From assembly GCA_022563395.1 (NCBI GenBank), contig JADFNM010000001.1, positions 178,830 through 242,829 on the forward strand: 64,000 nt of DNA, read 5' to 3'. Both the position numbers and the translations under genes were made by a program. Positions 11,241-58,349 of the stretch are shown here, in pieces. Source of the stretch: Patescibacteria group bacterium (GTDB lineage Bacteria > Patescibacteriota > Minisyncoccia > Minisyncoccales > UBA10102). The notes beneath the pieces are model-generated. The model searched no databases, was not told where the DNA came from, and worked only from the letters and a program-made list of their open reading frames with translations. Within the stretch, counting starts at the first letter, position 1; each line of letters opens with the position of its first letter.

Positions 11241-11278
11241 CCTAAACGAGATTTAGGAGCTCCTAAATCTCGTTTAGG
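11241..11278. repeat. Perfect 38-bp palindrome CCTAAACGAGATTTAGGAGCTCCTAAATCTCGTTTAGG
   Basis: Lies between the recR start and the dnaB stop. A near-identical copy is at 47768-47805. Confidence 0.85.
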
Positions 11279-11287
11279 CGATAATGG

Positions 11288-12679
11288 TTAAAAGGAGATT
11301 TCTTCGGCTGGTTCTTGATACTCAAGGTCTTTTTTTGCAAGATCGCTAAAACTCACGGTGCGCTCATTAAAGTAGAGTTTTACTGAGCCGACCGGTCCGT
11401 TTCTGTGCTTTGCAATAATAATCTCGGCAATCCCTTGGTTGGTGGGGTCTGCCCTATACTTGTCTTCTCGGTAAATAAACAGTACCACGTCCGCGTCCTG
11501 CTCAATGCTCCCGCTGGTGCGAAGGTCTGAAAGACGTGGACGCTGCGGGGCTCTTTGTTCCACCGCCCTTGAGAGTTGGGACAACGCAAGAACAGGAACG
11601 TTGAGTTCTCTTGCCAAGCCTTTGAGGGAGCGGGAGATTTCTGTCATCTGTTGAACTTCGTTCGTTTGAGCGTTGCGAGGCTCGATAAGTTGGATGTAAT
11701 CAATAATCAACAGGCCGAGCCCCTGGTTTGCCTGCAATCTTCTTGCCATGGCCCGCATTTTCAGCACGTTTTGAAGAGAGCTGTCTTCAATATACAGAGG
11801 GGCTTCAGACAACACTCCCATTGCTTCTTGTATTCTTGCAAAGTCATTATCATCTCCTTGAGAAGAAAGTCTTCCTGTTCTCAGTTTCCAAAGATCAACA
11901 CCTGCTTGGGAGGCGATAAGGCGGTCTATAACCTGGTCTTTGGACATTTCCAAAGAAAACACTCCTACGGGAATCTGTTGCTGGACCGCAACTCTTTTTG
12001 CAATGTCCATTGCCAGGGCTGACTTTCCCAGAGAAGGACGGGCTGCCAAGATAACAAGGTCTGAATTTTGGAGCCCAGAAAGAATGTTGTCTAGGTCTGC
12101 AAATCCCGTGGCAACTCCTCTTGTGCTCTTCTCGTGCTTTGAAAGCATGTCAATTCTCTCAAAGGCCTCTTCTAAGCTGTCTTTTACCTTGGTAAAGTTC
12201 TGAGCAAAGGACTTTTGGGCAATGGCAAAGATGCTGGATTCTGCTTTGTCTAAGAGAAGGTCGGTATCTTCTGCCTCGTCATACCCCATGCTTCCTATCT
12301 CATAGGAGACGGAGATTAAGTCACGCAGGATTCTCTTTTTCTGCACAATCTTGGCATATGCCATGACATGCGAGGCAGTGGGAACAGAGTTGATGAGTTC
12401 GGTTAAATAAGCATTTCCTCCCACCTCTTCTAGTTTTTCTTTTTCTTTGAGTCTGGAGGCAACGGACAGCAAATCAATGGGCTCCCCCTTTTCAAAGAGT
12501 TCTTCTATTGCAAGGTATATTTGCTGATGAATCTTTTTGTAAAAATCTCTGGTTTCCAGAAAATCGCCAACCTTTAAAAAGGCGTCTTTATCCATCATCA
12601 AGCTGCCCAAAAGGGAGGCCTCAGCCTCAATGTTTTGTGGGGGGAGTTTGTCTGGAACAGAGGTTTTTTCTTCTGCCAT
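11288..12679 (-). CDS. dnaB: Replicative DNA helicase DnaB (ORF extends to 12778; ATG at 12679 preferred)
   Basis: Walker A ARPSLGKSALA, a DnaB N-terminal domain, and a RecA-like C-terminal domain with IDYIQLI. Confidence 0.9.
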   Translation of the reverse strand: MAEEKTSVPDKLPPQNIEAEASLLGSLMMDKDAFLKVGDFLETRDFYKKIHQQIYLAIEELFEKGEPIDLLSVASRLKEKEKLEEVGGNAYLTELINSVPTASHVMAYAKIVQKKRILRDLISVSYEIGSMGYDEAEDTDLLLDKAESSIFAIAQKSFAQNFTKVKDSLEEAFERIDMLSKHEKSTRGVATGFADLDNILSGLQNSDLVILAARPSLGKSALAMDIAKRVAVQQQIPVGVFSLEMSKDQVIDRLIASQAGVDLWKLRTGRLSSQGDDNDFARIQEAMGVLSEAPLYIEDSSLQNVLKMRAMARRLQANQGLGLLIIDYIQLIEPRNAQTNEVQQMTEISRSLKGLARELNVPVLALSQLSRAVEQRAPQRPRLSDLRTSGSIEQDADVVLFIYREDKYRADPTNQGIAEIIIAKHRNGPVGSVKLYFNERTVSFSDLAKKDLEYQEPAEEISF

Positions 12680-12830
12680 AGTAGAACTATCATAGCCATT
12701 CTGGAAAGGTTTGGCAAGAACAGTAATCCTTTGTGGATAAATAGCTTGTCGCCATTTGGGGAATGCTGTATGGTACAAAAACAGGTCCTACAATCACCCA
12801 TACGTAAACGCAGACTGAAAGGAGACGGAC

Positions 12831-13619
12831 ATGGCAGAAAAACTATGTAAGCACACCATGCCCATCCTTCAGTGTGCTCTTTGCAACAAGAATCCAATAG
12901 AGCTCAGGAAGGCTGGGATGGACCCGTATCCACGCTCGGTTGTCAGTTTGCCACCAAGTACCACGAAGCAGGTGGCAACGCCAGAGATACCAGAAGAAGG
13001 CGCTTTCGAGCCCAAACCCGAGGGCGAAAAAGAGATCGCTGAGGCAACCATCTTAAGAGAAGAGAGTCTCAGGCCAGCGGAAGACTTGGGAGACGACGGG
13101 GATATGGGAGACACGCCTCCAGAAGATGTGGAGCGAGACATGCAGGAAACCCCTGCAGCCCCTGTACCAACGCCAAAACCCATCAGAGCTTCCACTCCTT
13201 CTTCCAACGGCACAACCTCGCGTGCTCCAATCGTCCATCTGGCAACGGGGCACGAGGAAAGCCCAGATATTTCGCCTCCCGTGACAGAATCCGTAGCGGC
13301 TCCCCATCCTTCTCGCAGGACCATAAGAAAAAAAAGGGCAGCCACATCCCCTCCGCCACCTATCTCCACGGCAAAGAGGCATAGGCCAAAAAGGAGAAAG
13401 AGTGCGATATCAAACAAAAACTCTCCGAAAAGGAGAACCCGAGGAGAGACCATTCTAAGGAAACTTGGGATGCTAAAGAAGCGTCTCGAGAATATGTCTG
13501 GTATGAGCCCGGGGCAGATTTCCTCGATAACGCCGGAGGAGCGAAAAGAAATCGTCCAACAGATTTCGTTCCTCCTATGGGTTCTTCAAAAACTTGGCAT
13601 CAAGTTCTCTCCTGAATGA
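12831..13619 (+). CDS. Hypothetical disordered Pro/Ser/basic-rich protein with an N-terminal Cys cluster
   Basis: AGGAG ribosome-binding site 7 nt upstream. N-terminal CKHTMPILQCALC, then a low-complexity body. An antisense ORF of similar length exists. Confidence 0.4.
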   Translation: MAEKLCKHTMPILQCALCNKNPIELRKAGMDPYPRSVVSLPPSTTKQVATPEIPEEGAFEPKPEGEKEIAEATILREESLRPAEDLGDDGDMGDTPPEDVERDMQETPAAPVPTPKPIRASTPSSNGTTSRAPIVHLATGHEESPDISPPVTESVAAPHPSRRTIRKKRAATSPPPPISTAKRHRPKRRKSAISNKNSPKRRTRGETILRKLGMLKKRLENMSGMSPGQISSITPEERKEIVQQISFLLWVLQKLGIKFSPE

Positions 13620-13637: not shown

Positions 13638-15053
13638 TTAGGCTCTGGACTTTTCTTTTGGTTTTAAGCGAGGTCCTTTGGAGGTATCGTCAACCTGCCA
13701 CCCTTTCTTTAAGAGCATTTTTCGTAACTCGTCTGCCTTTTGCCACTGCTTGGCTTTTCGATACTTATCGCGTTGTTCTGCTAACTTAAGAATATCTAAT
13801 GGGATTATAATTTTTGCCTTGGCAAAGAAAATAAATCCAAAAATCTTGTCTGCCTCTTTTAAAAAGGCGAGGATTGCTTTTGAGTCTTTGAAAGAAAGCT
13901 TTCCCGCTGCCATCATGGTGTTGCCGTGGTTTATTAACTCAAAGAGGATAGAAATGGCTTTGGGAGTGTTGAAATCATCTTCCAATGCTTTTTTGAATCT
14001 TTCCCGCACTTCTTTCAAAAACCCAGTGTGTCCTAAATCTCGTTTAGGAGAACTTAGAGCTTTTAATTTATCAACAAACTCATCAATGTGTGCTAGTTCC
14101 CGCTTTGTCTGTAAAAGCAGTTTGTCTGAATAATCAATAGGGGAACGATAATGGGTTTTGAGTACCAGGAGTCGAAGCATTCGGGAAGAATGTGCTTTCA
14201 AGAAGTCTTTGATGGTAATAAAGTTGCCCAGGGATTTGGACATCTTTTCGCCTTCTACTGTCAAAAACCCAGAATGCATCCAGTGCTTTGCCATGGGTTT
14301 TTTGCCAGAGATGGCCTCCATTTGAGCAATCTCTGCTTCATGGTGGGGAAAAATGAGATCTTGAGCCCCCCCGTGCAGCTCGTACTGAACGCCGAAGCGC
14401 TTCTCTGTCATGGCGGTATCTTCAATGTGCCAGCCAGGGCGTCCCCGCCCCCAAGGGCTCGGCCAAGCGGGGTCTGACCCCGCTTTTGCTTCAAATTTCC
14501 ACAAGGCAAAGTCACCCTTATTCCGTTTGTGTATTGATTCATCAATACGGGAAACCGCATCTTCTGCCTGAAGAGAGGTTCTGCCAGAGAGCTTACCGTA
14601 ATCCTTGAACTTTAAGATATCATAATACAAGCCATCTTCCTTAATCTCATAGGCATATCCTTTTTGCACCAACCGCTTTATCTGGGTGATAATCTCTTGG
14701 ATATGTTCGGTGGCCCTGACATACTTGCTTACGCTTTTAATGCCCAGGGCCTTCATGTCTTTTAAGTACTCCTTCTCAAATCTCTTTGCTAAGGCCTTTG
14801 GAGTAACCCTGGTTCTTTTAGCCCGTTGAATAATCTTGTCGTCAATATCGGTAATGTTCTGCAGATAGTCTACCCCGTACCCTTCAAACCTTAAAAACCG
14901 CACAAAAGCGTCAAAAGAGATATAGGTTCTGGCATGACCAAGGTGCGAAAAGTCGTATACGGTGGGGCCACACACAAAAAGAGAGATTTTCTTTTTTGGT
15001 CTGGTTTTTAGGGGCTCTTTTTTTCTTGAAAGCGTGTTGTAGAGCTTTATCAT
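13638..15053 (-). CDS. cysS: Cysteinyl-tRNA synthetase
   Basis: HIGH motif HLGHARTY and KMSKS motif GEKMSKSLGN. Contains an in-frame palindromic element encoding SPKRDLGH. Confidence 0.9.
   Translation of the reverse strand: MIKLYNTLSRKKEPLKTRPKKKISLFVCGPTVYDFSHLGHARTYISFDAFVRFLRFEGYGVDYLQNITDIDDKIIQRAKRTRVTPKALAKRFEKEYLKDMKALGIKSVSKYVRATEHIQEIITQIKRLVQKGYAYEIKEDGLYYDILKFKDYGKLSGRTSLQAEDAVSRIDESIHKRNKGDFALWKFEAKAGSDPAWPSPWGRGRPGWHIEDTAMTEKRFGVQYELHGGAQDLIFPHHEAEIAQMEAISGKKPMAKHWMHSGFLTVEGEKMSKSLGNFITIKDFLKAHSSRMLRLLVLKTHYRSPIDYSDKLLLQTKRELAHIDEFVDKLKALSSPKRDLGHTGFLKEVRERFKKALEDDFNTPKAISILFELINHGNTMMAAGKLSFKDSKAILAFLKEADKIFGFIFFAKAKIIIPLDILKLAEQRDKYRKAKQWQKADELRKMLLKKGWQVDDTSKGPRLKPKEKSRA
14053..14069. 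repeat. CCTAAATCTCGTTTAGG element inserted in frame within cysS
   Basis: 17-bp palindrome core. On the coding strand it reads PKRDLG, in frame with the cysS ORF. Confidence 0.75.
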
Positions 15054-15117: not shown

Positions 15118-16221
15118 ATGGCCACCAATCTTGTGCTCTACCGCAAATACAGGCCCCAAAGCTTCGGAGAGGTTATAGGCCAAGACCACGTGGTTCAGAC
15201 CTTAAAAAATGCAGTGAGGGCTAACCTTATTGCCCACGCCTATCTGTTTTCCGGTCCCAGAGGTTCGGGGAAAACAACCCTGGCCAGGATCTTAGCTAAG
15301 GCGGTAAACTGCAAGAATCCCAAACAAGGAGAGCCAGACAACACGTGTGAGTCTTGCCAAGAGATAAACCAAGGAAGAGCACTGGATTTCATAGAGATTG
15401 ATGCTGCTTCTAACCGAGGCATTGACGAGATTCGAGAATTAAAAGAGGGGATTCGCTTTGTACCCGCAAGGTTAAAATACAAGGTCTTTGTCATAGACGA
15501 GGCACACCAGTTAACCAAAGAGGCCTCTAATGCCCTGTTAAAAACCCTGGAAGAACCTCCTTCCCATGCAATCTTTGTTTTAGCTACTACAGAGGTTCAC
15601 CGCATGATTGGCACCATTGTGTCTCGGTGTCAGCGCTTTGACTTTAGAAGATTGCAGGTTCCAGAAATAGTAGAACGTTTGCAAGATCTTGCAAAAAAAG
15701 AGAAGGCTACAATTGACAAGCAGGCTCTCTTGATTATTGCAGGAAGCGCCGGGGGGTCATTTCGCGACGCAGAGTCACTGCTTGACCGCGTTCTTACTTT
15801 TCATGCAGGAAACAAGATTACGCAAGAAACAGTACAAGAACTCCTTGGCATTGTAGACATTCATATTCTCTCTAAATTTGTAGACCTGCTGTTTTTGAAG
15901 AAAGCGGCTCAACCAGTGGAGTTTTTAAACAAGAAGCTGCAAGAAGGCATGGACCCCCAAGAGTTTGCAAAGAATCTGGTAGAATATTTGCGAAACCTCC
16001 TTATTCTCAAACTCAACCCAGAGCTTAAAGATACCCTTACGCCAAGCTATACCAAAGAACAGCAAGAAAAAATAGCAGAGCAGGCAAAGGCAGTGGAAGG
16101 AAAGTTTTTGACCAATGCCTTAAAACTCTTTATGGCAGCAGAGCGTGACATGAGGTATGCCGATATTGTGCAGCTTCCCTTGGAACTTGCGATTGTAGAG
16201 AGCACAATGAAAGAAGAGTAA
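15118..16221 (+). CDS. dnaX: DNA polymerase III subunit gamma/tau (short form)
   Basis: AAA+ Walker A GPRGSGKTT, a zinc module CESCQEI, and sensor motifs. Confidence 0.85.
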   Translation: MATNLVLYRKYRPQSFGEVIGQDHVVQTLKNAVRANLIAHAYLFSGPRGSGKTTLARILAKAVNCKNPKQGEPDNTCESCQEINQGRALDFIEIDAASNRGIDEIRELKEGIRFVPARLKYKVFVIDEAHQLTKEASNALLKTLEEPPSHAIFVLATTEVHRMIGTIVSRCQRFDFRRLQVPEIVERLQDLAKKEKATIDKQALLIIAGSAGGSFRDAESLLDRVLTFHAGNKITQETVQELLGIVDIHILSKFVDLLFLKKAAQPVEFLNKKLQEGMDPQEFAKNLVEYLRNLLILKLNPELKDTLTPSYTKEQQEKIAEQAKAVEGKFLTNALKLFMAAERDMRYADIVQLPLELAIVESTMKEE

Positions 16222-16343
16222 CGATGCGGGGTCGCCCGCCTAGACTCGACGTCTAGTCGAGGCTGGTCTAACGGCCTGCCTCGCGAAGACTCGTCTCGAG
16301 ACGAAGCGGATAATCTTCAGCAAGTCGAGGCAAGTAGGACTTA

Positions 16344-16598
16344 ATGAAATATATAGTTTACATCCTTCAAAGTCTGTCAGCTAAAAAAAGTTATGTCGGA
16401 GTAACGGATAACATAGAACGCCGCATCAAAGAGCATAACAGCGGAAAACATTTCTATACGAAAAGGCATACTCCGTGGAAAGTAATTCATACAGAAGAGT
16501 ATTCAAACTTTCAAGAAGCACAGAGGCAGGAAAAGTACTTAAAAACCACATCAGGCAGAAGAATCATGAAGAAAATCTTTGACTCAATCAAAACATAA
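16344..16598 (+). CDS. GIY-YIG nuclease domain protein
   Basis: 84 aa with YIVYILQS...YVGVTDNIERRIKEHN. Directly upstream of tRNA-Gln. Confidence 0.7.
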   Translation: MKYIVYILQSLSAKKSYVGVTDNIERRIKEHNSGKHFYTKRHTPWKVIHTEEYSNFQEAQRQEKYLKTTSGRRIMKKIFDSIKT

Positions 16599-16603
16599 TC
16601 ATT

Positions 16604-16677
16604 GCGGGATCGTCTAACGGTAGGACATGGCCCTTTGGAGGCCAGTATCTAGGTTCGAATCCTAGTCCCGCAGCCAA
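16604..16677 (+). tRNA. tRNA-Gln (anticodon TTG), CCA encoded
   Basis: U1-A72 acceptor pair, anticodon loop CTTTGGA, T-loop GGTTCGAATCC, discriminator G, and CCA. Confidence 0.75.
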
Positions 16678-16787
16678 CGTGTACGAACAGAGTCAAGAAC
16701 TTTCTTGCTCTTATAATTAATAACAAGATACGGGGTATTGAAATGGACTTTTCCCTAGTCTAATGGTATAATAACTTACATAAGATT

Positions 16788-17024
16788 ATGCTGGAAAAAG
16801 AATTAAAATATTTTATTGATAATCAAAAAGAACTCGTAGCTAAATACGAGGGAAGATTTTTAGTGATTAGGGACCAAAAAGTTCAAGGTGTTTATAACAC
16901 AGAAATAGAAGCATACAACGAAGCTAAAAATAAGTTTGAACTAGGAACCTTTTTGATACAGAGAGCTCTTTCTGGTAAAGAAGGCTACACCCAGACTTTT
17001 CATTCTCGTGTAAGCTTTCCTTAG
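16788..17024 (+). CDS. Hypothetical 78-aa protein, translationally coupled to the retropepsin-like gene
   Basis: Its stop is 2 nt before the start of the next ORF. No recognisable motif. Confidence 0.45.
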   Translation: MLEKELKYFIDNQKELVAKYEGRFLVIRDQKVQGVYNTEIEAYNEAKNKFELGTFLIQRALSGKEGYTQTFHSRVSFP

Positions 17025-17026
17025 CC

Positions 17027-17590
17027 ATGCAAGATGCCTTTACTACAAGATATAAAGGACTGACACAAGTATTACACACACAAATAGGTGTGTGTTTGCC
17101 TTATACCAAAGAAGAAATAGAAATTAACAAAATTCAACTCAAAGAATATCTTGCAATCTGGGACACAGGAGCAACTCATTCAGCTATAACCAAGAAAGTT
17201 GCAGATGAGCTTGGATTAAAACCAACAGGTCTGGTTGATGTAAGACATGCTAAGGGATTGTCTAAAACCAATACTTACTATGTTAATATTGAGCTACCAA
17301 GCCATCTAATGATTGGCAATGTACGCGTAACAGAGGTTGAACTTATTCCAGACGCTAATACTTCAGATGACCAGCAACCACAAATTTTGATTGGTATGGA
17401 TATCATTGGTTTAGGTGATTTTGCAGTAACTAACTATAAAGGAAATACTATTCTTACATTTCGCACCCCCTCTATTGAAGAGATAGATTTTGTACCAGAG
17501 GCAAAGGAAGACAATATCATGGAAGGTGGAAATAGCCACGCACGTAAAGTTCAAAGAGCTAAAAAACGTAGAAGAGATAAGAAGAGATAA
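17027..17590 (+). CDS. Retropepsin-like aspartic peptidase (clan AA) with a basic C-terminal tail
   Basis: DTGA active-site motif (AIWDTGATHSAIT), an ILIGMDIIGLG flap-like region, and a KRRRDKKR tail. Confidence 0.6.
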   Translation: MQDAFTTRYKGLTQVLHTQIGVCLPYTKEEIEINKIQLKEYLAIWDTGATHSAITKKVADELGLKPTGLVDVRHAKGLSKTNTYYVNIELPSHLMIGNVRVTEVELIPDANTSDDQQPQILIGMDIIGLGDFAVTNYKGNTILTFRTPSIEEIDFVPEAKEDNIMEGGNSHARKVQRAKKRRRDKKR

Positions 17591-17635
17591 ATTCTTTACT
17601 TTCTAATAAACTTGTACTGTAAAAACAATCAAAGA

Positions 17636-17668
17636 ATCGCCAAATAGGCGGTTTTTTGGTAAGGTAGA
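17636..17668 (+). promoter_or_regulatory. Conserved hairpin-T6-GGTARRRT promoter module (ATCGCCAAATAGGCGGTTTTTTGGTAAGGTAGAGT), 4 nt before the ATG
   Basis: One of at least 9 copies of CGCCnnnnnnGGCGGTTTTTTGGTAGAAT located 5-20 nt upstream of start codons. Confidence 0.6.
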
Positions 17669-17671
17669 GTT

Positions 17672-17860
17672 ATGAGGGGCATTTACAGCATAACAAAGGG
17701 ACAATTGATTACACTATGGTTTTTTGGAACTATTGGTTGGCTTTTCGCTGGTCTCGTTTTGCTTAATGAAATTATCAGTGCCCTCCTGTATATTTTTTTG
17801 ATTCCGTTTATTCTTATTTTCTATACTATTGGTTGGAGAAATAGTAAAAAGAAAAAATAG
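17672..17860 (+). CDS. Small membrane protein (62 aa, 2 TM)
   Basis: Hydrophobic 62-aa ORF immediately downstream of the promoter module. Confidence 0.45.
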   Translation: MRGIYSITKGQLITLWFFGTIGWLFAGLVLLNEIISALLYIFLIPFILIFYTIGWRNSKKKK

Positions 17861-17900
17861 TGAATAGCAGAGTAGGGGAGAAATAATCTATTATCTACCT

Positions 17901-18494
17901 ATGAAGAGGAAAACTAAAAAAAGTACAGAGCTTACTACTAAGGAAGATTTGGGTAGCGACGAGGGATACTTGGAAAGTGAAGCGGTAGTAAAGCCTCCAG
18001 AAAAAGATAGTTTATTAAAGAGAATCCTATCGAGATTAGGCATGGGCGCCTTAGTCGTTGGTGGTGGCGCACTCTTTAGTGTAATTACTATTTTACAATT
18101 TTTAGTTACTGCTATCATTGGTTTAGGAATGATATGGTGGGCAGTAGTCTTATTTTTAGACGGCTCCATTATTTTGGGCCTATTGGTTCTTTTAATCGGG
18201 ACCCCAATAGCTATTGGATTAACCCACTTTTTCTTTTTCTTCTTCCTGGCGATAGGAATCCTTGCAACGATAATATGGGGAGTTGCTAACCTATTTGGTG
18301 TCGGTCTTTCTTTTGGTAATGCCTGGGATATTATTTGGCTGGTTATTGAGGTAGTGCTGCTTGGGGGTATGGCTTTTCTGGGAGTAAGTGGATTGATTGA
18401 AGCGATAAAAGAAAAGAGGGTAGCAGAGTTTTTTAAAGGAAATTGGTTCTATCTTTTACTCTTTGCATTTCTTTTTTGGTTATTTTTTCTCTAA
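17901..18494 (+). CDS. Hypothetical polytopic membrane protein
   Basis: 197 aa with a charged N-terminus followed by about 5 TM helices. Confidence 0.45.
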   Translation: MKRKTKKSTELTTKEDLGSDEGYLESEAVVKPPEKDSLLKRILSRLGMGALVVGGGALFSVITILQFLVTAIIGLGMIWWAVVLFLDGSIILGLLVLLIGTPIAIGLTHFFFFFFLAIGILATIIWGVANLFGVGLSFGNAWDIIWLVIEVVLLGGMAFLGVSGLIEAIKEKRVAEFFKGNWFYLLLFAFLFWLFFL

Positions 18495-18518
18495 GAGAAA
18501 CCAGTAAAACATCATAGT

Positions 18519-18830
18519 ATGGTCAAAAAAATCTATAGAGCAAATAATAGAGATGGCATTCTTATTGTGTTTGAGGATGGAAAACAAGTCGGTTTAACTG
18601 ATATAATGCGTGGTGTCCTACAGAACACATTCCGTACCCAGTTGGAGAATATAAAAATGCACCCTATCCCTCAGGAAGAAGGGGCATTAGAGACGAGACC
18701 TGATGAAGTAACAGAGGTTATACAAAAAGAAACTGGCTATTATTTAGAGGTTTCGGGAGATAAAGGGGATTATGATATTTCCGTTTCTCCTGAGGAGCTT
18801 AAAACTCTAATTTTTCTTGATGATAAATAA
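18519..18830 (+). CDS. Hypothetical protein (103 aa)
   Basis: ORF with plausible coding composition. Paired with the next ORF across a 2-nt gap. Confidence 0.35.
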   Translation: MVKKIYRANNRDGILIVFEDGKQVGLTDIMRGVLQNTFRTQLENIKMHPIPQEEGALETRPDEVTEVIQKETGYYLEVSGDKGDYDISVSPEELKTLIFLDDK

Positions 18831-18832
18831 AT

Positions 18833-19060
18833 ATGTATCTTGATATTGTTCTCGGTTTTTATAATCGTGCTGATGGTGGCTATGCACCGTGGTTTATGAT
18901 TTTTGAGCGTGATGGAGGTAATACCAGGGAGATTCCATTTGATTGCAAAGAGACTGCTCAATCAGAAAAAGAAGCAATACGCATTGCAAAAGCACACGCA
19001 CTAAAGATACTGGAAGAAAGATACTCCTCATCCGTCCAAGTTCGCTTTAGAGAAAAGTAG
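18833..19060 (+). CDS. Hypothetical protein (75 aa)
   Basis: Immediately follows the previous ORF. Acidic small protein. Confidence 0.35.
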   Translation: MYLDIVLGFYNRADGGYAPWFMIFERDGGNTREIPFDCKETAQSEKEAIRIAKAHALKILEERYSSSVQVRFREK

Positions 19061-19112
19061 GGGATTATCGCACAAAACTATATGCAAAGGTGAACTTGCC
19101 ACCCAATAAAAG

Positions 19113-19130
19113 GGTTCTAACTTCGTCCAG
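19113..19130. repeat. GGTTCTAACTTCGTCCAG boundary motif (copy 1; about 34 bp near-identical to the copy at 19815)
   Basis: CAATAAAAGGGTTCTAACTTCGTCCAGTGCCCC at 19100-19135 versus the same sequence with one mismatch at 19802-19840. The two copies flank the P-loop kinase gene as direct repeats. Confidence 0.7.
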
Positions 19131-19218
19131 TGCCCCCGGCTGCTAATTTTAAGCTTAGATTCTAAGCACCCTATCGTGGAGTTAGAACTATGGGTGATTT
19201 TTTGATAAAGTGAACAAT

Positions 19219-19725
19219 ATGAAAAAGAAATTGAGATTCATCTTACTAAACGGGCCAATAGGTTCGGGTAAATCCACTACTGCCAATCTTCTGCAAAGCA
19301 AATTGAAAAGAACTGCTATATTGAGTGTGGAAGACATTAGACAACTTATTTCTGATTTCAAGCACAACAGAGAAGACCATCTCCTTACGTGGAAAATTAT
19401 CCATAGTATGTGTGATGAATATTTCAAAAATGGAATAAGTGTGTTGCTTGAACAGTCCTATTGTTCCAAAGATAATGTTAATCAATTTCTGCGTCTTGCA
19501 AAAAAGCACAAGTGCTCCATAGGTTTCTATCATCTTCAAGCACCAAGAAGTATTTTACTTGAAAGAATTAAGCAACGAAAGAAAGACCATAAGACTTCAA
19601 AAGCTAAAATAATAAGTAATATTAAAAAACACGAAGAAACGACCTACCCAGACGCTATTGTTATTGATACTTCTGAAATGAAACCGGTCGAAGTCGCTAA
19701 GCTTATTTTGAATGATTTAAAGTGA
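19219..19725 (+). CDS. P-loop NTPase/kinase (AAA_33/zeta-toxin-like nucleotide kinase fold); ORF also opens at GTG 19210
   Basis: Walker A LNGPIGSGKST and about 170 aa, kinase-sized. Flanked by direct repeats. Confidence 0.5.
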   Translation: MKKKLRFILLNGPIGSGKSTTANLLQSKLKRTAILSVEDIRQLISDFKHNREDHLLTWKIIHSMCDEYFKNGISVLLEQSYCSKDNVNQFLRLAKKHKCSIGFYHLQAPRSILLERIKQRKKDHKTSKAKIISNIKKHEETTYPDAIVIDTSEMKPVEVAKLILNDLK

Positions 19726-19814
19726 TTGGAGAAATAGTGTAACGTGGGGTGGGGTAATTTGTGTTAAGATGAGCTCAAACTATAGGCAAACCCTGACTTT
19801 CCTTGCAATAAAAG

Positions 19815-19832
19815 GGTTCTAACTTCGTCCAG
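19815..19832. repeat. GGTTCTAACTTCGTCCAG boundary motif (copy 2)
   Basis: Direct repeat of 19113-19130. Followed by the palindrome GCTTAAACGAGATTTAAGC at 19849-19867 and a promoter module. Confidence 0.7.
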
Positions 19833-19883
19833 TACCCCCTGCCATGATTGCTTAAACGAGATTTAAGCAATATGAGAAAAAGA

Positions 19884-19916
19884 ATCGCCATGCAGGCGGT
19901 TTTTTGATAGAGTAGG
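19884..19916 (+). promoter_or_regulatory. Hairpin-T6-promoter module (ATCGCCATGCAGGCGGTTTTTTGATAGAGT)
   Basis: Same module as at 17636. The ATG at 19920 follows 3 nt after GATT. Confidence 0.6.
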
Positions 19917-19919
19917 ATT

Positions 19920-20195
19920 ATGAAAAAGATTCATTTCTTCCTAGACGAATTCCACCACGGGGCTGTGAACCATGTGGTACATTTTACTGGCTTTACGCTC
20001 CTTGGATATGGATTAGGCATAGAGAACTGGTGGATTGTTATCCTCTCTCCTTTTGTCATGGAGATGGGTCATCTTTACAACTACTCTACGGGTAGAGACA
20101 GACACCATGCTATTCGCATCATTCCAATGCAGATAATAGCATGGCTCATCTTTGTAGGAATCGTATACTTACTTACAAGATTGTTTAGTTCATAG
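19920..20195 (+). CDS. Small membrane protein (91 aa)
   Basis: Hydrophobic helices, with His/Glu residues inside predicted helices. Confidence 0.4.
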   Translation: MKKIHFFLDEFHHGAVNHVVHFTGFTLLGYGLGIENWWIVILSPFVMEMGHLYNYSTGRDRHHAIRIIPMQIIAWLIFVGIVYLLTRLFSS

Positions 20196-20238
20196 AAGTT
20201 AAATTTGGAATATAAAACTCATCACTTAGCCTTATCCT

Positions 20239-20269
20239 GGTTCTAACGTCGTTCACGACACGCAGCTAG
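20239..20269. repeat. GGTTCTAACGTCGTTCACGACACGCAGCTAG boundary motif (left flank of the HExxH gene)
   Basis: A 31-bp near-identical direct repeat recurs at 21636-21666, on the other side of ORF 20315-21577. Confidence 0.7.
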
Positions 20270-20314
20270 TTTTAGAGGTTTGACGTGTTTGTGGATGCTT
20301 TGGTAAAATGAAAT

Positions 20315-21577
20315 ATGGAAAATAATTTTTATAGTAAAGGGCAAAGTTTAGTTGGTATAGCTATTATTTCAGTCATTATTAGCTTAATAGTAATAGGTGG
20401 TTTATATTTTTATTTTTCAAAACAAATCCCAGAAGTGTCTAAAATTTCCGAAAAACAAGCCGAAGAAATAATTCAACCAGAAGAGGTTATTCTTCCATCT
20501 GAAGAGTTACCCAAAGAAGAAATTGCTCCAGAGAAGAAAGTTGTAGAAATCTCAATTAAGGCTCCCAAGGAAACGGAGCTAGAAGCCCCCGCACCCCAAT
20601 CACCGCGCAAACCCTTTCCACCAACTGTTAGGATTGAGGCAAATCCAAGCACAGTGCCATCTGGAACACCAGTTACTCTTTCTTGGACTTCTGAAAACGC
20701 AGATTCTTGTATTGCAAAAGACGATTGGTCAGGATCGTTGGAGCTTTCTGGGCAAAGAACAGTTACTCCTCCTAGATCCATATCATACTATCCTGTAGAA
20801 TGCCGGAATCCATTCGGTATCGCATCATATTCTGTAACTATATATGTAGAGTCTATTGCACCTTTACCCTCAGAGGATGCGCCATTAACACCTAAAGAAG
20901 GATTTAGTCTACTTGTTGTCTTCACTTACGAAGATACACCACTAGATTCTCAGATTAAAGAGGACTTATGTACCGGATCTGGCACAAATAAGTTTTCCTA
21001 TCTTCCAAAATGGTTCAAACGTGAAGCAAGCAGATACGGCGTTTCATTCTCAATGACGGTACAATGTCTTGATCAACAAGTTGAACTATCGCAGGATGTT
21101 ATTGAGACAACAAACACCTGTAAGGGTGGTCTCGGAGGTACATTCACTTGTCCATATGACAAAACAAAAGCAAAAAGTTATCTCGAACAAACCATTCCAT
21201 TACTACAGAATTATGATGTTGTGACGATTATGCATTATAAGCCTTATTCTTATGAATTTGGGGCTGATTCAGACGGTTCTGGGGGAAAATATAATTATAT
21301 ATACCTCGCAAAAGGCCCAGTTATCGACGGAGTCCAATATTATAACCCCAATGTAGGAAACGAAGGCAACCATGCTTTTGCTGCTGCACATGAAAGTCTC
21401 CATAATCTAGGAGCATCTGACTACTACTTTCAGGGTTCCGGATACAAATGTTTGATAGAATCTGATCCTACTTTAATTTATAATAGCAGGTATATAATGT
21501 GTGCTGCTGCTAGGGAAGATCCTTTTAGTAGTTATGTAATTTCTCCTGAGACTGCAAAAGAACTTGGATGGAGATAA
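20315..21577 (+). CDS. Membrane-anchored protein with a Pro/Glu-rich linker, an Ig/CARDB-like domain and a C-terminal HExxH (zincin-like) domain
   Basis: N-terminal TM, an EEIAPEKK linker, a PSTVPSGTPVTLSWTSENADSC beta-sandwich-like segment, and AAAHESLHNLGASDYY. Confidence 0.5.
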   Translation: MENNFYSKGQSLVGIAIISVIISLIVIGGLYFYFSKQIPEVSKISEKQAEEIIQPEEVILPSEELPKEEIAPEKKVVEISIKAPKETELEAPAPQSPRKPFPPTVRIEANPSTVPSGTPVTLSWTSENADSCIAKDDWSGSLELSGQRTVTPPRSISYYPVECRNPFGIASYSVTIYVESIAPLPSEDAPLTPKEGFSLLVVFTYEDTPLDSQIKEDLCTGSGTNKFSYLPKWFKREASRYGVSFSMTVQCLDQQVELSQDVIETTNTCKGGLGGTFTCPYDKTKAKSYLEQTIPLLQNYDVVTIMHYKPYSYEFGADSDGSGGKYNYIYLAKGPVIDGVQYYNPNVGNEGNHAFAAAHESLHNLGASDYYFQGSGYKCLIESDPTLIYNSRYIMCAAAREDPFSSYVISPETAKELGWR

Positions 21578-21635
21578 ATTCAAGCTATATTAAGAAGTCG
21601 TATGACGAGAATGTGAGCTCCTCACATACCAAAAG

Positions 21636-21666
21636 GGTTCTAACTTCGTCCACGACACGCAGCTAG
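21636..21666. repeat. GGTTCTAACTTCGTCCACGACACGCAGCTAG boundary motif (right flank)
   Basis: Direct repeat of 20239-20269. Confidence 0.7.
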
Positions 21667-21690
21667 CAGTTCTGAATAGCAAAAATCGCA

Positions 21691-22074: not shown

Positions 22075-22240
22075 TTCTAAATGAGACACGAGATACTACG
22101 CCTATCCAGTGTCTCATTTGTCTCATTTTGTGCTAAAATGACCCCGACCGAGACGGGTAGATGAGACACCCCTAGAAAGCCCCAGAATCCCTCTTAAACC
22201 TCATGTTCCAGACCAAGGGTGCTAAAGCCAAACATAAAAC

Positions 22241-22810: not shown

Positions 22811-22920
22811 GATTCTCTGCACCAGCATTCACGCAACGGGACATTCGTCTCTGAGAGACTCAGTCTCGATGAGTTCTAACATCGTCCAAGCCCCGCAGCA
22901 TACTAATACAAGAAGCCAAT

Positions 22921-39420: not shown

Positions 39421-39440
39421 TAGGGAGAGCCATTGTTGCT

Positions 39441-47767: not shown

Positions 47768-47805
47768 CCTAAATGAGATTTAGGAGCTCCTAAATCTCAT
47801 TTAGG
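47768..47805. repeat. 38-bp palindrome CCTAAATGAGATTTAGGAGCTCCTAAATCTCATTTAGG
   Basis: Variant (CAT vs CGT) of the 11241 copy. Lies between the efp start and the fmt stop. Confidence 0.85.
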
Positions 47806-50235: not shown

Positions 50236-51614
50236 TGAAAAAGCGAATACATTTTATTGGTATTGGGGGAATAGGGGTTTCTGCCCTGGCAAAGTACTAC
50301 CTAAAAAAAGGATGGCAGGTTTTGGGTTCTGACCTGACAGCAAGCGAGATTACCATACAAATGAAAAACCTGGGGGCAAAGGTACACATTGGAAAACCAA
50401 AGGCCTCCTTGATTACGACAAAAATAGAAAAAGTTATTTTCAGCCCTGCAGTTCCAAGGAATCATCCAGAGCGCATGGCTGCAAGAAAAAAGAAGATACA
50501 AGAACTCTCCTACCCTAAAGCCTTAGGAGAGCTTACTAAAAAACACTACACCATTGCGGTTTCTGGCACTCATGGGAAGTCCACTACCACTGCCATGCTC
50601 GGACTGTTGCTCACCAAAGCAGGGCTGGATCCCACGGTCATTGTGGGCACCAGGTTAAAAGAGTTTGGCAACAGCAACTGCAGGGTGGGAAAGAGCAAAT
50701 ACCTGGTTATTGAAGCTGACGAACACTTTGCCTCGTTTTTAAACTATCGCCCCCAAATCATTATCTTGACTTCTTTGGAAGCTGATCACTTAGACTTTTA
50801 CAAAACATTGGAAAACCTTATCAAAACCTTCAAAAAGTATGTTCGCCTTTTGCCAAAAGACGGAATAGTAGTAGCAAACAGAGACGACAAAAACGTTCAA
50901 AAGGTACTCAAGGGTTTTAAAAAAGAGATTATCTGGTATTCAAAAAAGCATAAGGGGGCTAAAAAGGTAAAGTCTGCGCTCTGGATACCAGGAGAACATA
51001 ATGTTTCAAACGCACTTTCCGTCCTTAAGGTCGCAAGACTTCTGAATGTTCCAGACAAGAAAAGTTTGGAGGCGCTTTCTCAATTCAAAGGTTCCTGGCG
51101 CAGGTTTGAACTGTTTTCCCTCAAAAAGCCCAAACCCTATACCTTGGTATCAGACTATGGTCACCACCCAACAGAGATTAAGGTAACAATAGAGGCCACG
51201 CGAGAGAAATGGCCTAAAAAGAACATCTGGCTTGTATACCAACCCCACCAGTATCAAAGGACGTTCTATCTTTTCAAAGATTTTGTGAGGGTGCTTTCCC
51301 GCCTTCCCATTCAAAAACTTCTCTTAATGGATATTTATGACGTGGCAGGCAGAGAAGAAAAAGCAATCAGGGGCAAAGTGTCCTCTCAGAAACTCATAGA
51401 GAAAATCCAGATGATGCCTAAACGGATGATGCCTAAACGAGATTTAGGATTTCCTAAATCTCGTTTAGGAGCCCCAAAAGAAGTTCTGTACATCCCCACT
51501 GCTGACCAGGTTAAAGCGTATCTTAAAAGAAACCTCACGGGAGGAGAGGTTGTTGTAGTTATGGGAGCTGGAGATATCTACCAAAATCTGACCCTTCGAC
51601 TATGCTCAGGGTAA
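50235..51614 (+). CDS. murC: UDP-N-acetylmuramate--L-alanine ligase, carrying an in-frame palindromic-element insertion
   Basis: GIGGIGVSALA Rossmann start and Mur ligase P-loop VSGTHGKSTTTAM. The C-terminal domain holds the inserted peptide MMPKRMMPKRDLGFPKSRLGAP. Confidence 0.85.
   Translation: MKKRIHFIGIGGIGVSALAKYYLKKGWQVLGSDLTASEITIQMKNLGAKVHIGKPKASLITTKIEKVIFSPAVPRNHPERMAARKKKIQELSYPKALGELTKKHYTIAVSGTHGKSTTTAMLGLLLTKAGLDPTVIVGTRLKEFGNSNCRVGKSKYLVIEADEHFASFLNYRPQIIILTSLEADHLDFYKTLENLIKTFKKYVRLLPKDGIVVANRDDKNVQKVLKGFKKEIIWYSKKHKGAKKVKSALWIPGEHNVSNALSVLKVARLLNVPDKKSLEALSQFKGSWRRFELFSLKKPKPYTLVSDYGHHPTEIKVTIEATREKWPKKNIWLVYQPHQYQRTFYLFKDFVRVLSRLPIQKLLLMDIYDVAGREEKAIRGKVSSQKLIEKIQMMPKRMMPKRDLGFPKSRLGAPKEVLYIPTADQVKAYLKRNLTGGEVVVVMGAGDIYQNLTLRLCSG
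51417..51469. repeat. Palindromic element (CCTAAACGAGATTTAGGATTTCCTAAATCTCGTTTAGG) plus a 14-bp duplicated flank ATGATGCCTAAACG, inserted in frame in murC
   Basis: Seen directly in the sequence. Frame preserved. Confidence 0.8.
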
Positions 51615-51735: not shown

Positions 51736-52215
51736 ATGCCATTTCTTTTAATAATCGTAATCATCATCGTGGTAGCAGCAGTGGCGTGGTACTTTGTAAT
51801 GAGCAGGGGAAAGGGGAAAAGTCCAAAGCCTCAAGGCCCACAGCCTCCTTCCTTCAAAACCCCTCAGGGGCCACCACCTTCACCACCGCCTCCCGTGAGG
51901 CCAGAACCCCCGAGGCCAACTCCGCCTTCGCCTCCTCCGGTACTGCCAAAGCAACCAACACCTCCTGCGCCGCCACCTCCACCTCCCACGCGGCCAACTC
52001 CGCCTTCGCCTCCTCCGGTACTGCCAAAGCAACCAACACCTCCTGCGCCGCCACCTCCACCTCCTCCCACGCGGCCAACTCCGCCTTCGCCTCCTCCGGT
52101 ACCGCCAAAGCAACCAACACCTCCTGCGCCGCCACCTCCACCTCCACCTCCTCCCACGCGGCCAACTCCGCCTCCACCACCGCCTCCGGTGGGAGGAGAT
52201 ACAGGAATGATGTAG
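51736..52215 (+). CDS. Membrane-anchored proline-rich tandem-repeat protein
   Basis: N-terminal TM then three repeats of PTPPSPPPVLPKQPTPPAPPPPPPTR, each with a longer poly-Pro run than the last. Confidence 0.55.
   Translation: MPFLLIIVIIIVVAAVAWYFVMSRGKGKSPKPQGPQPPSFKTPQGPPPSPPPPVRPEPPRPTPPSPPPVLPKQPTPPAPPPPPPTRPTPPSPPPVLPKQPTPPAPPPPPPPTRPTPPSPPPVPPKQPTPPAPPPPPPPPPTRPTPPPPPPPVGGDTGMM
51912..52190. repeat. Tandem DNA repeat, about 78/81/87-bp units (ACGCGGCCAACTCCGCCTTCGCCTCCTCCGGTACTGCCAAAGCAACCAACACCTCCTGCGCCGCCACCTCCACCTCC...)
   Basis: Three consecutive copies with CCT/CCACCT expansions. Both alternative frames and the opposite strand are also open; these are treated as artefacts. Confidence 0.8.
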
Positions 52216-55884: not shown

Positions 55885-55887
55885 CGC

Positions 55888-56991
55888 ATGATCCCATTAC
55901 TTTCCTTTTCTGTTATTAAGATTGCTCTTATGGTTTCAGCCGGCTTTTTGGTTGCTCTTTTCTTGACCCCGGGGCTTACCAACATTCTCTACAAATACAA
56001 GCTCTGGCGAAAATCAGTAAGGCAAACTGCCATGGGGGGCGGGGAACTCCCCATTTTTAAAAAGTTTCACCAGGAAGGGGAGGTGAAAACCCCTCGCTTT
56101 GGGGGAGTATTAATCTGGGTTACACCCCCATTTTTAGCCCTATTCTTTTTTTTGTTGTCAAAAACGGGGAATCCCTGGCTTGAGGGTTTCAACTTCCTTT
56201 CCAGGTCCCAAACCTGGCTGCCTTTGGCAACTTTGGTTGCGGCCTCCACAGTGGGTTTTTTGGATGATATTCTTCAAGTTCTTTCGGCCCCCACAAACAT
56301 TTTTTTGCGGTCTTTATGGGAAAGGATAAACAAATACACTGCAGGGGGACTTTCTTTAAAACTGCGCTTCACCTTGGTTTTTCTTATTGGTTTGGTGGGG
56401 GCTTGGTGGTTTTTCTCAAAGCTCGGCTGGGACACCGTATTTGTTCCTGGGATAGGAGATGTATTTTTGGGATTTGCCATGATTCCCTTCTTTGTTATAG
56501 TCATGCTTGCCACCTATTCTGGGGGAGTCATTGACGGCATTGACGGCTTGTCTGGCGGTACTTTTGCTTCCATCTTTACCGCCTATGGGTTAATTGCCTT
56601 TGCGCAAGGGCAAATTGACTTGGCGACCTTGTGCTTTGCCATTGTGGGGGCGCTGCTGGCTTTTTTGTGGTTTAATATCCCTCCAGCCCGTTTTTACATG
56701 GGTGAAACCGGGATTATGGGACTGACTGCAACCTTAACAGTGGTTGCCTTTCTCACCGACTCTGTCATGGTATTGCCGATTATTGGCATACTCTTGGTTG
56801 CAGAATCCGCATCGGTCATTATTCAGGTTGCCTCAAAGAAACTACGAAAGGGAAAAAAGGTGTTTCTCGCAGCCCCCATACACCATCACTTTGAAGGCAT
56901 GGGCTGGCCTTCCACCAAGGTGACCATGCGATTCTGGGTAATCGGAGTTGTCGCAGCTTTCGTAGGAGTTGCTGTCAGACTACTCGGATAG
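55888..56991 (+). CDS. mraY: Phospho-N-acetylmuramoyl-pentapeptide transferase
   Basis: 10-TM GT4 family member with DD motif LDDILQV, and the DG/ID segments VIDGIDGLSGG and HHHFE. Confidence 0.85.
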   Translation: MIPLLSFSVIKIALMVSAGFLVALFLTPGLTNILYKYKLWRKSVRQTAMGGGELPIFKKFHQEGEVKTPRFGGVLIWVTPPFLALFFFLLSKTGNPWLEGFNFLSRSQTWLPLATLVAASTVGFLDDILQVLSAPTNIFLRSLWERINKYTAGGLSLKLRFTLVFLIGLVGAWWFFSKLGWDTVFVPGIGDVFLGFAMIPFFVIVMLATYSGGVIDGIDGLSGGTFASIFTAYGLIAFAQGQIDLATLCFAIVGALLAFLWFNIPPARFYMGETGIMGLTATLTVVAFLTDSVMVLPIIGILLVAESASVIIQVASKKLRKGKKVFLAAPIHHHFEGMGWPSTKVTMRFWVIGVVAAFVGVAVRLLG

Positions 56992-57014
56992 CTTCTTAGT
57001 GAAACTAAGTTTCT

Positions 57015-58349
57015 ATGAAGATAGAGGTGTTGAGAAAAAAATATCCGAAGTTTTTCTATCGGGGGTATACCTACAAGCGTTCTGGGGGAGATCTCTGCAT
57101 CTCTTTTGAGTTTGCGGTACCCCGCACCGTCGCCAAAGCGGCTATGGCGCGTCGGCGACCAGACATCTCCTTTCGCCCAACAATAGTGGTAAAGAACATA
57201 CCAAAAAAGCATCCAAACATTGAGAACATTATCTTTCATCTTGGATTACTTGAGATGATAAGCTACTGGAAGGCAACAGCCTCGCCCAAGATTGTTATTG
57301 AAGCGGGGCATCTTACAAAAGAGCAGATTGCCTGGTTTAAAGATCTCATCTTTCAAGGAATGGGAGAGTACTTTTTTCAAAACAAGATAGACTTTACCCA
57401 GAAAAACTTCCTTACAATAACCTCCACCGGAAGTTTTCCTAAACGAGATTTAGGAACTCCTAAATCTCGTTTAAGCAACAGGACATTGGTGCCTGTGGGC
57501 GGGGGAAAGGATGCGGTGGTAACGCTTGAGCTGTTCAAAAAAGCAAAGCTTTTGCTGCGCCCCCTTCTCTTGAACCCAAAAAAAGAACAGCTTCGTATCC
57601 TTAGTCTAACTAAGACAGGGAAACCAATTGTGGTAGAACGCACCATTGATCCAGAGCTTTTGAAACTAAATCGTAAGGGATACCTCAATGGACACACGCC
57701 TTTTTCTGCTTATCTTGCGTTCCTGACAGTTCTCTGTGCAGCTCTTTTTGACTACAAATACATAGCTCTTTCCAACGAACGGAGCTCAAATGAAGGAAAT
57801 GTAAAATACCAAGGCAAGATCATCAATCATCAGTATTCCAAGACCTATGATTTTGAAAAGAAGTTTCGGGCATATACAAAGAAATATCTTCTCAAAGATG
57901 TTGAATACTTTAGTTTCTTACGTCCCTTGTACGAATTGCAGATAGCAAAGCTCTTTTCGAGATACCCAAAGTACTTCCCTGTGTTCTTGAGCTGCAACGA
58001 AGCCTACAAAACAAAATCAGGAAGCAAAAAACCAACAGGGGAGTGGTGCGGGAAATGTGCCAAATGTCTCTTTGTGTTCCTTTCCTTGTATCCTTTTATA
58101 GGTCAGAAACGGACGATTGCTATCTTTAAAAAGAATCTTCTCAAGGAAAAGAAACTACAGCCACTCTTAGAAGAACTCACAGGCAAGAAGAGATTTAAGC
58201 CCTTTGAGTGTGTAGGCACTATAGCAGAAAGTAGGGCTTTGCTTGCATTGCAAAAGAAGAAAGACCACCTCATGCTGTATGCCTGGAATAAAATGCATTT
58301 CCTCCCCAAAAAGTTTGAACAAATACTCAAGAAAGCGCTTACTCCTTAA
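57015..58349 (+). CDS. Hypothetical PP-loop-like protein with a C-terminal Cys cluster, inserted between mraY and murD; carries an in-frame palindromic element
   Basis: LVPVGGGKDAVV resembles the SGGxDS PP-loop. C-terminal CGKCAKC. Contains the inserted peptide FPKRDLGTPKSRLS. Confidence 0.4.
   Translation: MKIEVLRKKYPKFFYRGYTYKRSGGDLCISFEFAVPRTVAKAAMARRRPDISFRPTIVVKNIPKKHPNIENIIFHLGLLEMISYWKATASPKIVIEAGHLTKEQIAWFKDLIFQGMGEYFFQNKIDFTQKNFLTITSTGSFPKRDLGTPKSRLSNRTLVPVGGGKDAVVTLELFKKAKLLLRPLLLNPKKEQLRILSLTKTGKPIVVERTIDPELLKLNRKGYLNGHTPFSAYLAFLTVLCAALFDYKYIALSNERSSNEGNVKYQGKIINHQYSKTYDFEKKFRAYTKKYLLKDVEYFSFLRPLYELQIAKLFSRYPKYFPVFLSCNEAYKTKSGSKKPTGEWCGKCAKCLFVFLSLYPFIGQKRTIAIFKKNLLKEKKLQPLLEELTGKKRFKPFECVGTIAESRALLALQKKKDHLMLYAWNKMHFLPKKFEQILKKALTP
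57438..57476. repeat. Palindromic element CCTAAACGAGATTTAGGAACTCCTAAATCTCGTTTAAGC, in frame within ORF 57015-58349
   Basis: Seen directly in the sequence. Frame preserved. Confidence 0.8.

Follow-up and report, generated by a model that had tools for sequence, protein, structure and literature searches.

Palindromic units resembling REP sequences, and a probably linked RAYT-like Y1 transposase, in a Parcubacteria genome

Repetitive extragenic palindromic (REP) sequences and their hairpin-forming doublets (REPINs) in Escherichia coli and Pseudomonas fluorescens are short, imperfect palindromes of high copy number that lie mostly outside genes. They frequently stand as inverted pairs, each folding into a single long hairpin, they retain pairing through symmetrical changes, and their sequences are species-specific. 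They border an apparently single-copy, vertically inherited gene for a Y1 (HUH) enzyme, the REP-associated tyrosine transposase (RAYT), and occasional copies lie inside genes or supply stop codons, as earlier documented in other phyla (PMC3733652). We describe a repeat family with these properties in a 64,000-nt stretch of DNA (the window; positions 178,830 to 242,829 of contig JADFNM010000001.1, assembly GCA_022563395.1) from a Patescibacteria group bacterium, a member of the Candidate Phyla Radiation (CPR); the repeats bordering the Y1 gene were seen in the loci of relatives. We think it probable that these repeats are a REP/REPIN-like unit population linked to a conserved RAYT-like Y1 transposase in a Parcubacteria genome. 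CPR genomes rank with the smallest and most streamlined of all bacterial genomes, and persistent repeat populations are unexpected in them. The family differs from the E. coli and P. fluorescens systems in its units of only 17 nt with A/T-rich stems, and in having no GTAG or CGTC tag and instead a conserved nonamer, TTATCC(A/C)CA, between units in the hairpin loop. Its Y1 protein, of about 238 aa, has extra helices and scores below the NCBIfam RayT cut-off, the family resides in a CPR bacterium whose genome is about 0.7 Mb in size, and a high share of its sites (4 of 17) lies in essential genes.

With up to three mismatches allowed, the core CCTAAACGAGATTTAGG had 21 matches in the window against 0.17 expected, a number that none of 100 shuffled sequences reached, and the window's commonest 10-mers and 12-mers came from this core. 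A scan independent of the core found 23 perfect hairpins with a stem of at least 5 bp and a YGARA loop, compared to 0.5 in shuffles. A covariance model trained on the window's units themselves identified 27 units at E ≤ 0.03, which two weaker partner units bring to 29, distributed over 17 sites in 64 kb. In 84 kb of sequence from the host species, a unit occurs about once every 2.5 kb. The original prediction, made from the sequence alone, had claimed a dispersed palindromic family, and this family is real; all the positions it listed hold a copy, except that the copy in cysS lies at 14032-14048 and not at 14053-14069.

Each basic unit folds as a 17-nt hairpin whose A/T-rich stem has 6-8 bp and whose 5-nt loop reads YGARA; units range from 17 to 21 nt, which places them at the lower end of the 20-40 nt or so of REP palindromes. 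Stem variants (CCTAAA, CTTAAA, CCTTAA and CTTAG) and loop variants (CGAGA, TGAGA, CGAAA and TGAAA) make the family wider than the core first proposed. The stem variants stay paired and the loop stays YGARA, with 5 of 6 stem positions altered on both sides, a count that is partly circular because the sequences had been selected as hairpins. At 9 of the 17 sites the units form inverted pairs spanning 38-45 nt, three of which are perfect 38-bp palindromes. The two units of a pair are joined either by a spacer of 3-4 nt, giving perfect or near-perfect palindromes, or by the nonamer, which then lies in the hairpin loop. DNA folding of the inverted pairs gave -13.6 to -20.3 kcal/mol (z from -7 to -12), and the nonamer-linked inverted composites (unit-TTATCCNCA-unit) gave long hairpins of -11 to -20 kcal/mol. 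The nonamer has the sequence of the consensus DnaA box, and 11 of its 13 occurrences in 151 kb of window and relatives' sequence are flanked by units; the window holds two such composites, at 9545-9590 and at 29929. A replication origin or DnaA-box cluster was considered and rejected: TTATCCACA with at most one mismatch occurs 14 times against 15 expected, and the exact boxes beside units are the element linker. A dimeric operator site was likewise rejected, because the asymmetric centre is conserved whereas the half-sites of a single genome co-vary.

Thirteen of the 17 sites are intergenic, though 91.6% of the window is coding and 8.4% non-coding (binomial p = 1.7e-11). The units lie mostly downstream of co-directional genes, and at recR-dnaB, efp-fmt and ORF 10076-recR an element fills the whole gap between two such genes. 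The single units include five in the sense and two in the antisense orientation relative to transcription. In an accessory region at 19-40 kb, paralogous intergenic modules consist of a GGTTCTAAC motif, then 0-3 units, then a promoter-like module; since the number of units is 0, 1, 2 or 3 across these modules, the units behave as variable inserts.

The link to a candidate transposase came from relatives of the host. The window's MurC is identical to MCH7828507.1 from a Patescibacteria group bacterium, whose gene lies on a contig of 671,501 bp, and its relatives are Parcubacteria, e.g. Wildermuthbacteria. In one relative (L045/L049), the exact 38-bp element with an AGCT spacer lies in frame within dprA, and about 760 bp from it we found a 239-aa open reading frame (ORF) that scores 26.2 bits on Pfam Y1_Tnp (cut-off 23) and carries the HUH motif NHFHLLL. 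This ORF is bordered on both sides by unit-TTATCC(A/C)CA-unit composites. Like composites border homologous Y1 genes in L052 and L053-55, and the Y1 gene of L056 has single units without linker on either side; 17-nt units therefore flank the gene at all four relatives' loci examined. The composite at 9545-9590 in the window has the same unit-linker-unit layout. An AlphaFold model of the Y1 protein (mean pLDDT, the predicted local confidence, 86.8) had as its best match in the PDB 4ER8, a complex of the E. coli RAYT with a REP hairpin (E 4.4e-6, template modelling score 0.71), with the TnpA proteins of IS608 and ISDra2 ranking behind it.

Homologs of the Y1 protein numbered 4437 at E ≤ 1e-5; the best 120 of these 4437 are 62-85% identical, and many of those among the best 120 that have a source name come from Parcubacteria lineages. 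The full gene order Y1-comF-dprA-comM-UPF0102-TPR-TPR-rpoB (TPR, tetratricopeptide repeat gene) was found in L049 and L052, and in L053-56 at least comF lies immediately downstream of the Y1 gene. This synteny across four lineages, together with the 62-85% identity, fits vertical inheritance, and the gene appears to be single-copy, with one per contig examined. The window's own contig (671,501 bp) encodes a member of the family, MCH7828631.1, which is annotated at 179 aa and starts at family residue 61; a near-identical full-length version is present in another assembly. At L052 6710-6790, upstream of the intact Y1 gene, we also observed a duplicated fragment of its 5' end (MIRKKFEQGNIYHVYNRGVEKRDVF followed by a stop), with several units and a TTATCCCCA composite between the two. 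In the composite upstream of the Y1 gene, L053 and L055 differ from L054 by an 8-nt tandem duplication (AAACTTAG) and by TTATCCCCA versus TTATCCACA.

Four of the 17 sites are in coding sequence, and here the original prediction that copies are tolerated in frame in essential genes was upheld by the translations. The units of the CCTAAA and CTTAAA types that occur in genes have one stop-free frame per orientation, reading PKRDL or PKSRL, and this open frame is used by all coding copies: those in CysS, MurC and MurL, one in a ClpB-like gene of the host species and one in DprA of a relative. The single cysS unit (14032-14048, minus strand) encodes PKRDLG at residues 336-341, within the peptide SPKRDLG. 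It occurs in decaying forms across a sub-clade (SKRDLR, PRRDLG, LKRDLR, PKRNPG) and is missing from the other ~45 orthologs, which have a variable linker at that position. The ClpB-like gene, 10 kb upstream of the window, holds an additional in-frame pair.

In murC (51410-51469, plus strand), a tandem duplication is followed by an inverted pair, and together they encode MMPKRMMPKRDLGFPKSRLG (MMPKR-MMPKRDLG-F-PKSRLG). The flank duplication reported earlier as 14 bp exists as a perfect 15-bp tandem, GATGATGCCTAAACG twice, at 51410-51439, made of 7 nt of flank and the unit's first 8 nt. At this site, MurC orthologs that are 85% identical carry a single degraded unit (MMLKRDLE), a relative of 77% identity carries CCTAGG-CGAAA-TCTAGG (PRRNLG), and in more distant orthologs the site is empty. 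Neither the second unit (21 nt) nor the 15-bp duplication occurs in the orthologs at 85% identity, which dates their gain to after that split. Most coding copies, however, are old insertions shared by relatives and not recent ones. The peptides were confirmed as lineage-specific, since distant MurC and CysS orthologs are without them. The proposal that insertions sit in surface loops is in keeping with the MurC AlphaFold model (mean pLDDT 89.6), in which the sole stretch below 50, residues 398-412, falls within the element peptide (395-412), between a helix and a strand. Another sporadic in-frame MurC insert, NSTHSTxSGLTLSNVEG, was seen at one site of the protein in scattered lineages (P0005, P0013, P0021, P0023 and P0028; alignment A1, columns about 185-210), and it suggests a second in-frame repeat-insertion family in Parcubacteria.

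The ORF at 57015-58349, previously described as PP-loop-like, is instead MurL, the UDP-MurNAc-L-Ala-L-Glu epimerase (NCBIfam E 1.5e-82; Pfam MurL_N and MurL_epimerase_C precomputed for the identical gene, while a local Pfam scan gave no match). Its inverted pair (57438-57475, plus strand) is in frame and encodes PKRDLGTPKSRLS (PKRDLG-T-PKSRLS). Three lineages have different unit variants at this site: in L023 it is a AAACTTAG-CCGAG-CTAAGTTT pair, and in L021 it consists of CTTGGT-type units with the linker TTATCCACA in frame, translated NYPH, adjoined by a partial tandem duplication of about 24 nt. A further L021 match in murL, at 16269, was taken as chance since it lies in the conserved protein segment ILSLAKT. 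The murL gene adjoins murD in the division and cell wall (dcw) cluster, which implies that this CPR lineage would make its peptidoglycan through the MurD2/MurL L-Glu epimerase route.

Where other, independent assemblies of the species cover the window, within 40235-61623, they match it at 99.9-100% identity, and further same-species contigs have model matches at positions corresponding to the window's elements. Since the assemblies agree and the contigs hold corresponding matches, the repeats are not assembly artefacts. Presence or absence of units varies between relatives. At the efp-fmt site, L018 has another stem variant, and L021 and L023 have a different 17-nt hairpin. In a search of 185,579 representative genomes, JGI metagenomes and IMG/VR, the exact 17-mer was nowhere repeated and gave isolated single matches only, 16 of them among the representative genomes, a GTDB set that excludes the source genome. 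Most of these look like chance or conserved matches, such as ribosomal protein L13 ('MLPKSRLG') and one intergenic hairpin of Acholeplasma; the exception is the metagenome contig L045, through which the Y1 gene came to light. The idea of a 'dialect', with one stem variant per genome, was dropped, as a TARA relative mixes CCTAAA, ACTAGG, CCTAGG and CCTTAA stems.

These observations suggest a mechanism in which the Y1 protein mobilises the units: it would recognise their hairpins on single-stranded DNA, its presumed substrate, with the nonamer as a putative recognition or cleavage site, and would copy them around the genome. Purifying selection would then leave only harmless copies, located in gene gaps and often straight after a stop codon. 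Coding copies would be retained in variable surface linkers, with CCTAAA-type units confined to the one open frame of each orientation (PKRDLG or PKSRLG). Once inserted, copies persist for long periods, pass vertically and keep their pairing by symmetrical changes, as in the pair at 47768 with its mirrored T/A. Local events associated with the hairpins also alter them: parts are duplicated in tandem, a second, inverted unit is added or the linker is lost. Slippage and template switching at the hairpins would create the partial duplications and second units.

Several observations weigh against a transposase-driven REP-like population. Among the four same-species assemblies, no gain or loss of a unit was seen within 40235-61623, and no pair of empty and filled sites was found between near-identical strains; the only length change was in an unrelated tandem repeat with a period of 78-81 nt. 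(This repeat, of 3.3 copies, lies at 51907-52173 between murC and a histidine-kinase gene, and L027 and L028 have one copy fewer.) The coding copies that have close orthologs for comparison (the CysS unit, the first MurC unit and the MurL site) are old and have been inherited vertically; relatives at 75-85% identity share the first two, and such old, inherited copies are compatible with selected structural elements too. Units and linker contain neither a GTAG nor a CGTC tag, and the units begin with CCT, CTT or TGC. The nonamer linker is missing from those pairs in the window that are the most perfect, so the putative recognition site is absent from the youngest-looking copies. The Y1 protein scores 18 bits on the NCBIfam REP_Tyr_transpos (RayT) model, for which the cut-off is 80, and the copy on the window's contig is annotated 60 residues short at its N-terminus, which makes its activity in this genome putative. 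No Y1 homolog was detected inside the window by tblastn. Finally, L018 and L049 were treated as one organism by assumption, as they come from the same two samples.

As the main alternative, the repeats could be hairpins selected by the host in RNA or DNA, serving as mRNA 3'-end stabilisers, weak terminators, processing sites or protein-binding sites, maintained by selection at fixed sites and made uniform by gene conversion, without transposition; the Y1 gene would then be an unrelated neighbour. This would explain why the efp-fmt gap and the MurC, MurL and CysS sites are occupied across lineages that are ~25% diverged in protein, why another 17-nt hairpin covers the fmt stop codon where efp-fmt has no YGARA element, why units are mainly downstream of co-directional genes, and why pairing is kept despite changes on both sides of the stem. 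Single units in both orientations and copies in essential coding regions, an odd location for terminators, fit it poorly, as do identical 17-21-mers at unlinked loci, the varying unit number in paralogous modules and the consistent flanking of the Y1 gene at the four relatives' loci. The units also match no Rfam family: in the window, two tRNAs alone exceeded the gathering threshold, and nothing credible was found at E ≤ 1 in 19-23.2 kb. We regard selected hairpins as a rather unlikely explanation of the family. Somewhat less likely still, in our judgement, is that the Y1 enzyme and the hairpins are a domesticated system for processing single-stranded DNA hairpins, conserved across Parcubacteria, and not a selfish remnant. 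In that case the repeats might serve to mark or process single-stranded DNA, be it incoming or replicating, or to titrate DnaA, and the peptides in essential proteins would be a side effect. This possibility is raised because the Y1 gene is syntenic with comF-dprA-comM, genes that process transforming DNA, and because the loop nonamer is identical to the consensus DnaA box.

The same synteny bears on the possibility that the units are DNA uptake signals (uptake signal sequences, USS, or DNA uptake sequences, DUS) enriched through biased uptake and recombination. Competence genes occur in Patescibacteria, the Y1 gene stands beside comF-dprA-comM in the lineages examined (dprA-comM was read in the two long loci), and the units share with USS/DUS a dense distribution of short motifs, inverted pairs at gene ends and coding copies restricted to one frame. 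However, there is no single invariant core here: each genome has several stems, only the 5-nt loop is common to relatives, and the defining feature is a hairpin with variable stems. In Haemophilus most USS copies are within genes, whereas 13 of the 17 sites here fall in the non-coding 8% of the window, a far stronger bias, and the conserved hairpin pairing would be needless for a receptor of double-stranded DNA. Given above all the absence of an invariant core, we consider uptake signals very unlikely. Local birth of the palindromes, by template switching at quasi-palindromes or by slippage, with no movement between loci and with likeness arising by convergence on A/T-rich hairpins, would account for the mirrored changes that the two units at 47768 show, for the partial tandem duplications beside units (15 bp in murC, 8 bp in L053 versus L054, about 24 nt in L021 murL) and for a second MurC unit that arose beside an existing one. 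Template switching cannot, however, give the same 17-21-nt unit, AGCT spacer and nonamer at unlinked loci and in different genomes, and as a general explanation we give local birth very little credence. The original prediction had called the repeats similar to Rickettsia palindromic elements (RPEs). The likeness holds for their behaviour, as both families are palindromic repeats that essential protein genes tolerate in frame and that add peptides in what are predicted surface loops. RPEs are 100-150 nt long and belong to Rickettsiales, whereas the elements here are 17-nt units and 38-45-nt pairs (17-45 nt overall), and they have a candidate dedicated transposase in the RAYT-like Y1 gene; no transposase is known for RPEs. 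The exact core, moreover, gave the 16 isolated single matches described above, none in a repeated pattern. That the elements are members or direct analogues of RPE families is therefore extremely improbable, and membership is effectively refuted by length, the property by which the two were set apart, and not by an RPE consensus.

A REP/REPIN-like population also invites comparison with other palindromic repeats and their enzymes. Like the bacterial interspersed mosaic elements (BIMEs) of E. coli, the composites are two inverted units parted by a conserved linker motif; the BIME linker has a site for a host factor such as integration host factor (IHF), whereas the linker here has the sequence of a consensus DnaA box and not of an IHF site. 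IS200/IS605 insertion sequences and their derivatives among the transposable elements of the miniature, inverted-repeat type (MITEs), such as palindrome-associated transposable elements (PATE), share with this family a Y1 HUH enzyme, recognition of hairpins on single-stranded DNA (presumed here) and hairpin-bearing ends on the same strand. In contrast to IS200/IS605, the Y1 gene is without tnpB, the repeats are far shorter than insertion sequence ends, and the gene is not hopping, as shown by synteny conserved across lineages.

With regard to novelty, in-frame REP behaviour itself is not new, since intragenic palindromes are known from other phyla (PMC3733652), and the earlier suggestion of novelty has to be narrowed to that extent. 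In the literature library that we searched, no paper connected CPR/Patescibacteria with REP or RAYT systems. What appears to be new is the CPR host group, the minimal, tagless 17-nt unit, a conserved loop nonamer with the sequence of the consensus DnaA box and a Y1 gene in fixed synteny with transformation genes. A REP/RAYT-like system across Parcubacteria would, if true, widen the known range of these replicators. It would also offer a link between REP elements, for which the transposase is known, and RPE-type palindromes in essential proteins, for which the mechanism is not. On the practical side, the lineage-specific peptides in MurC, MurL, CysS, ClpB and DprA can mislead alignments and annotation, and the repeats may break short-read assemblies, as many Y1 contigs are just 1-2 kb long.

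The remaining sites are distributed along the window as follows. The composite at 9545-9590 (plus strand) lies in the rmuC-rplU gap and reads CCTTAA-CGAAA-TTAAG, the linker TTATCCACA (9563-9571) and CCTAAA-TGAGA-TTTAG. An inverted pair with a degenerate 9-10-nt spacer (10581-10626) fills the 56-nt gap from the ORF at 10076-10573 to recR, both on the minus strand, and the recR-dnaB gap holds a perfect 38-bp palindrome of two units with an AGCT spacer (11241-11278; DNA fold -20.3 kcal/mol, z = -9.7). The next six sites are intergenic. They comprise a single unit with a 10-bp stem, ATTGCTTAAA-CGAGA-TTTAAGCAAT (19847-19871, plus strand), an inverted pair, CCTAAATGAAATTAAGG-ATT-CTTTAATTTCATTTAGG (22925-22962), and a single unit, TGCTTAAA-CGAGA-TTTAAGCA (25422-25442, plus strand). 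At 29929-29956 the linker TTATCCACA is followed by the unit CCTAAA-TCTCG-TTTAAG, the left unit being degenerate. Three units at 31340-31430 form a hairpin with a 17-bp stem and the loop TTTCG (31340-31378) and an inverted pair (31392-31428), and a CCTTAA-type inverted pair is found at 33583-33621.

Further along, three units (plus, minus, plus; 39437-39539) stand upstream of a phosphopantetheinyl transferase gene, a plus-strand ORF with a Pfam ACPS match, and a single unit, TTCCTTAA-CGAAA-TTAAGGAA (44909-44929, plus strand), is located between two minus-strand genes. The efp-fmt gap is taken up by a perfect 38-bp palindrome with mirrored TGAGA/TCTCA in its two units (47768-47805), which provides the fmt stop codon. 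Within fmt, a candidate old unit in frame (47971-47991, minus strand; SSPKLNLGD) is uncertain, with a covariance model E of 0.008, and lies inside a variable segment that is also present in L018. The single unit TCTTAG-TGAAA-CTAAGT (56994-57010, plus strand) is in the mraY-murL gap.

The promoter-like module of the accessory region has the form AATCGCC-N5-GGCGGTTTTTTGGTAGAAT, in which a T-run and an extended -10-like box come after a GC hairpin. It occurs 8 times compared to 0.02 expected, always on the plus strand and shortly upstream of start codons (17647, 19895, 29984, 31056, 31461, 38327, 39063 and 39566). Another motif of this region, GGTTCTAACTTCGTCC, occurs 7 times on the plus strand just 3' of ORFs (19113, 19815, 20239, 21636, 22872, 31315 and 39403). 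The copy at 19113-19195 pairs with GGAGTTAGAAC downstream of it, the two enclosing a small hairpin that has no Rfam match, and the GGTTCTAACTTCGTCC/GGAGTTAGAAC arrangement loosely resembles the inverse-core and core ends of an integron attC site. The segment at 16000-24000 has lower GC (0.38-0.41), small accessory genes and the densest intergenic modules; its genes include a zeta-toxin-like kinase, a polyketide-cyclase-like protein, a hydrolase and NfeD/SPFH. Near the start of the window, the same-species assembly L057 has no called gene at 11203-13110, the counterpart of window 1842-3503, where the window has a penicillin-binding protein (PBP) transpeptidase gene; the missing call may reflect an assembly gap or a pseudogene.

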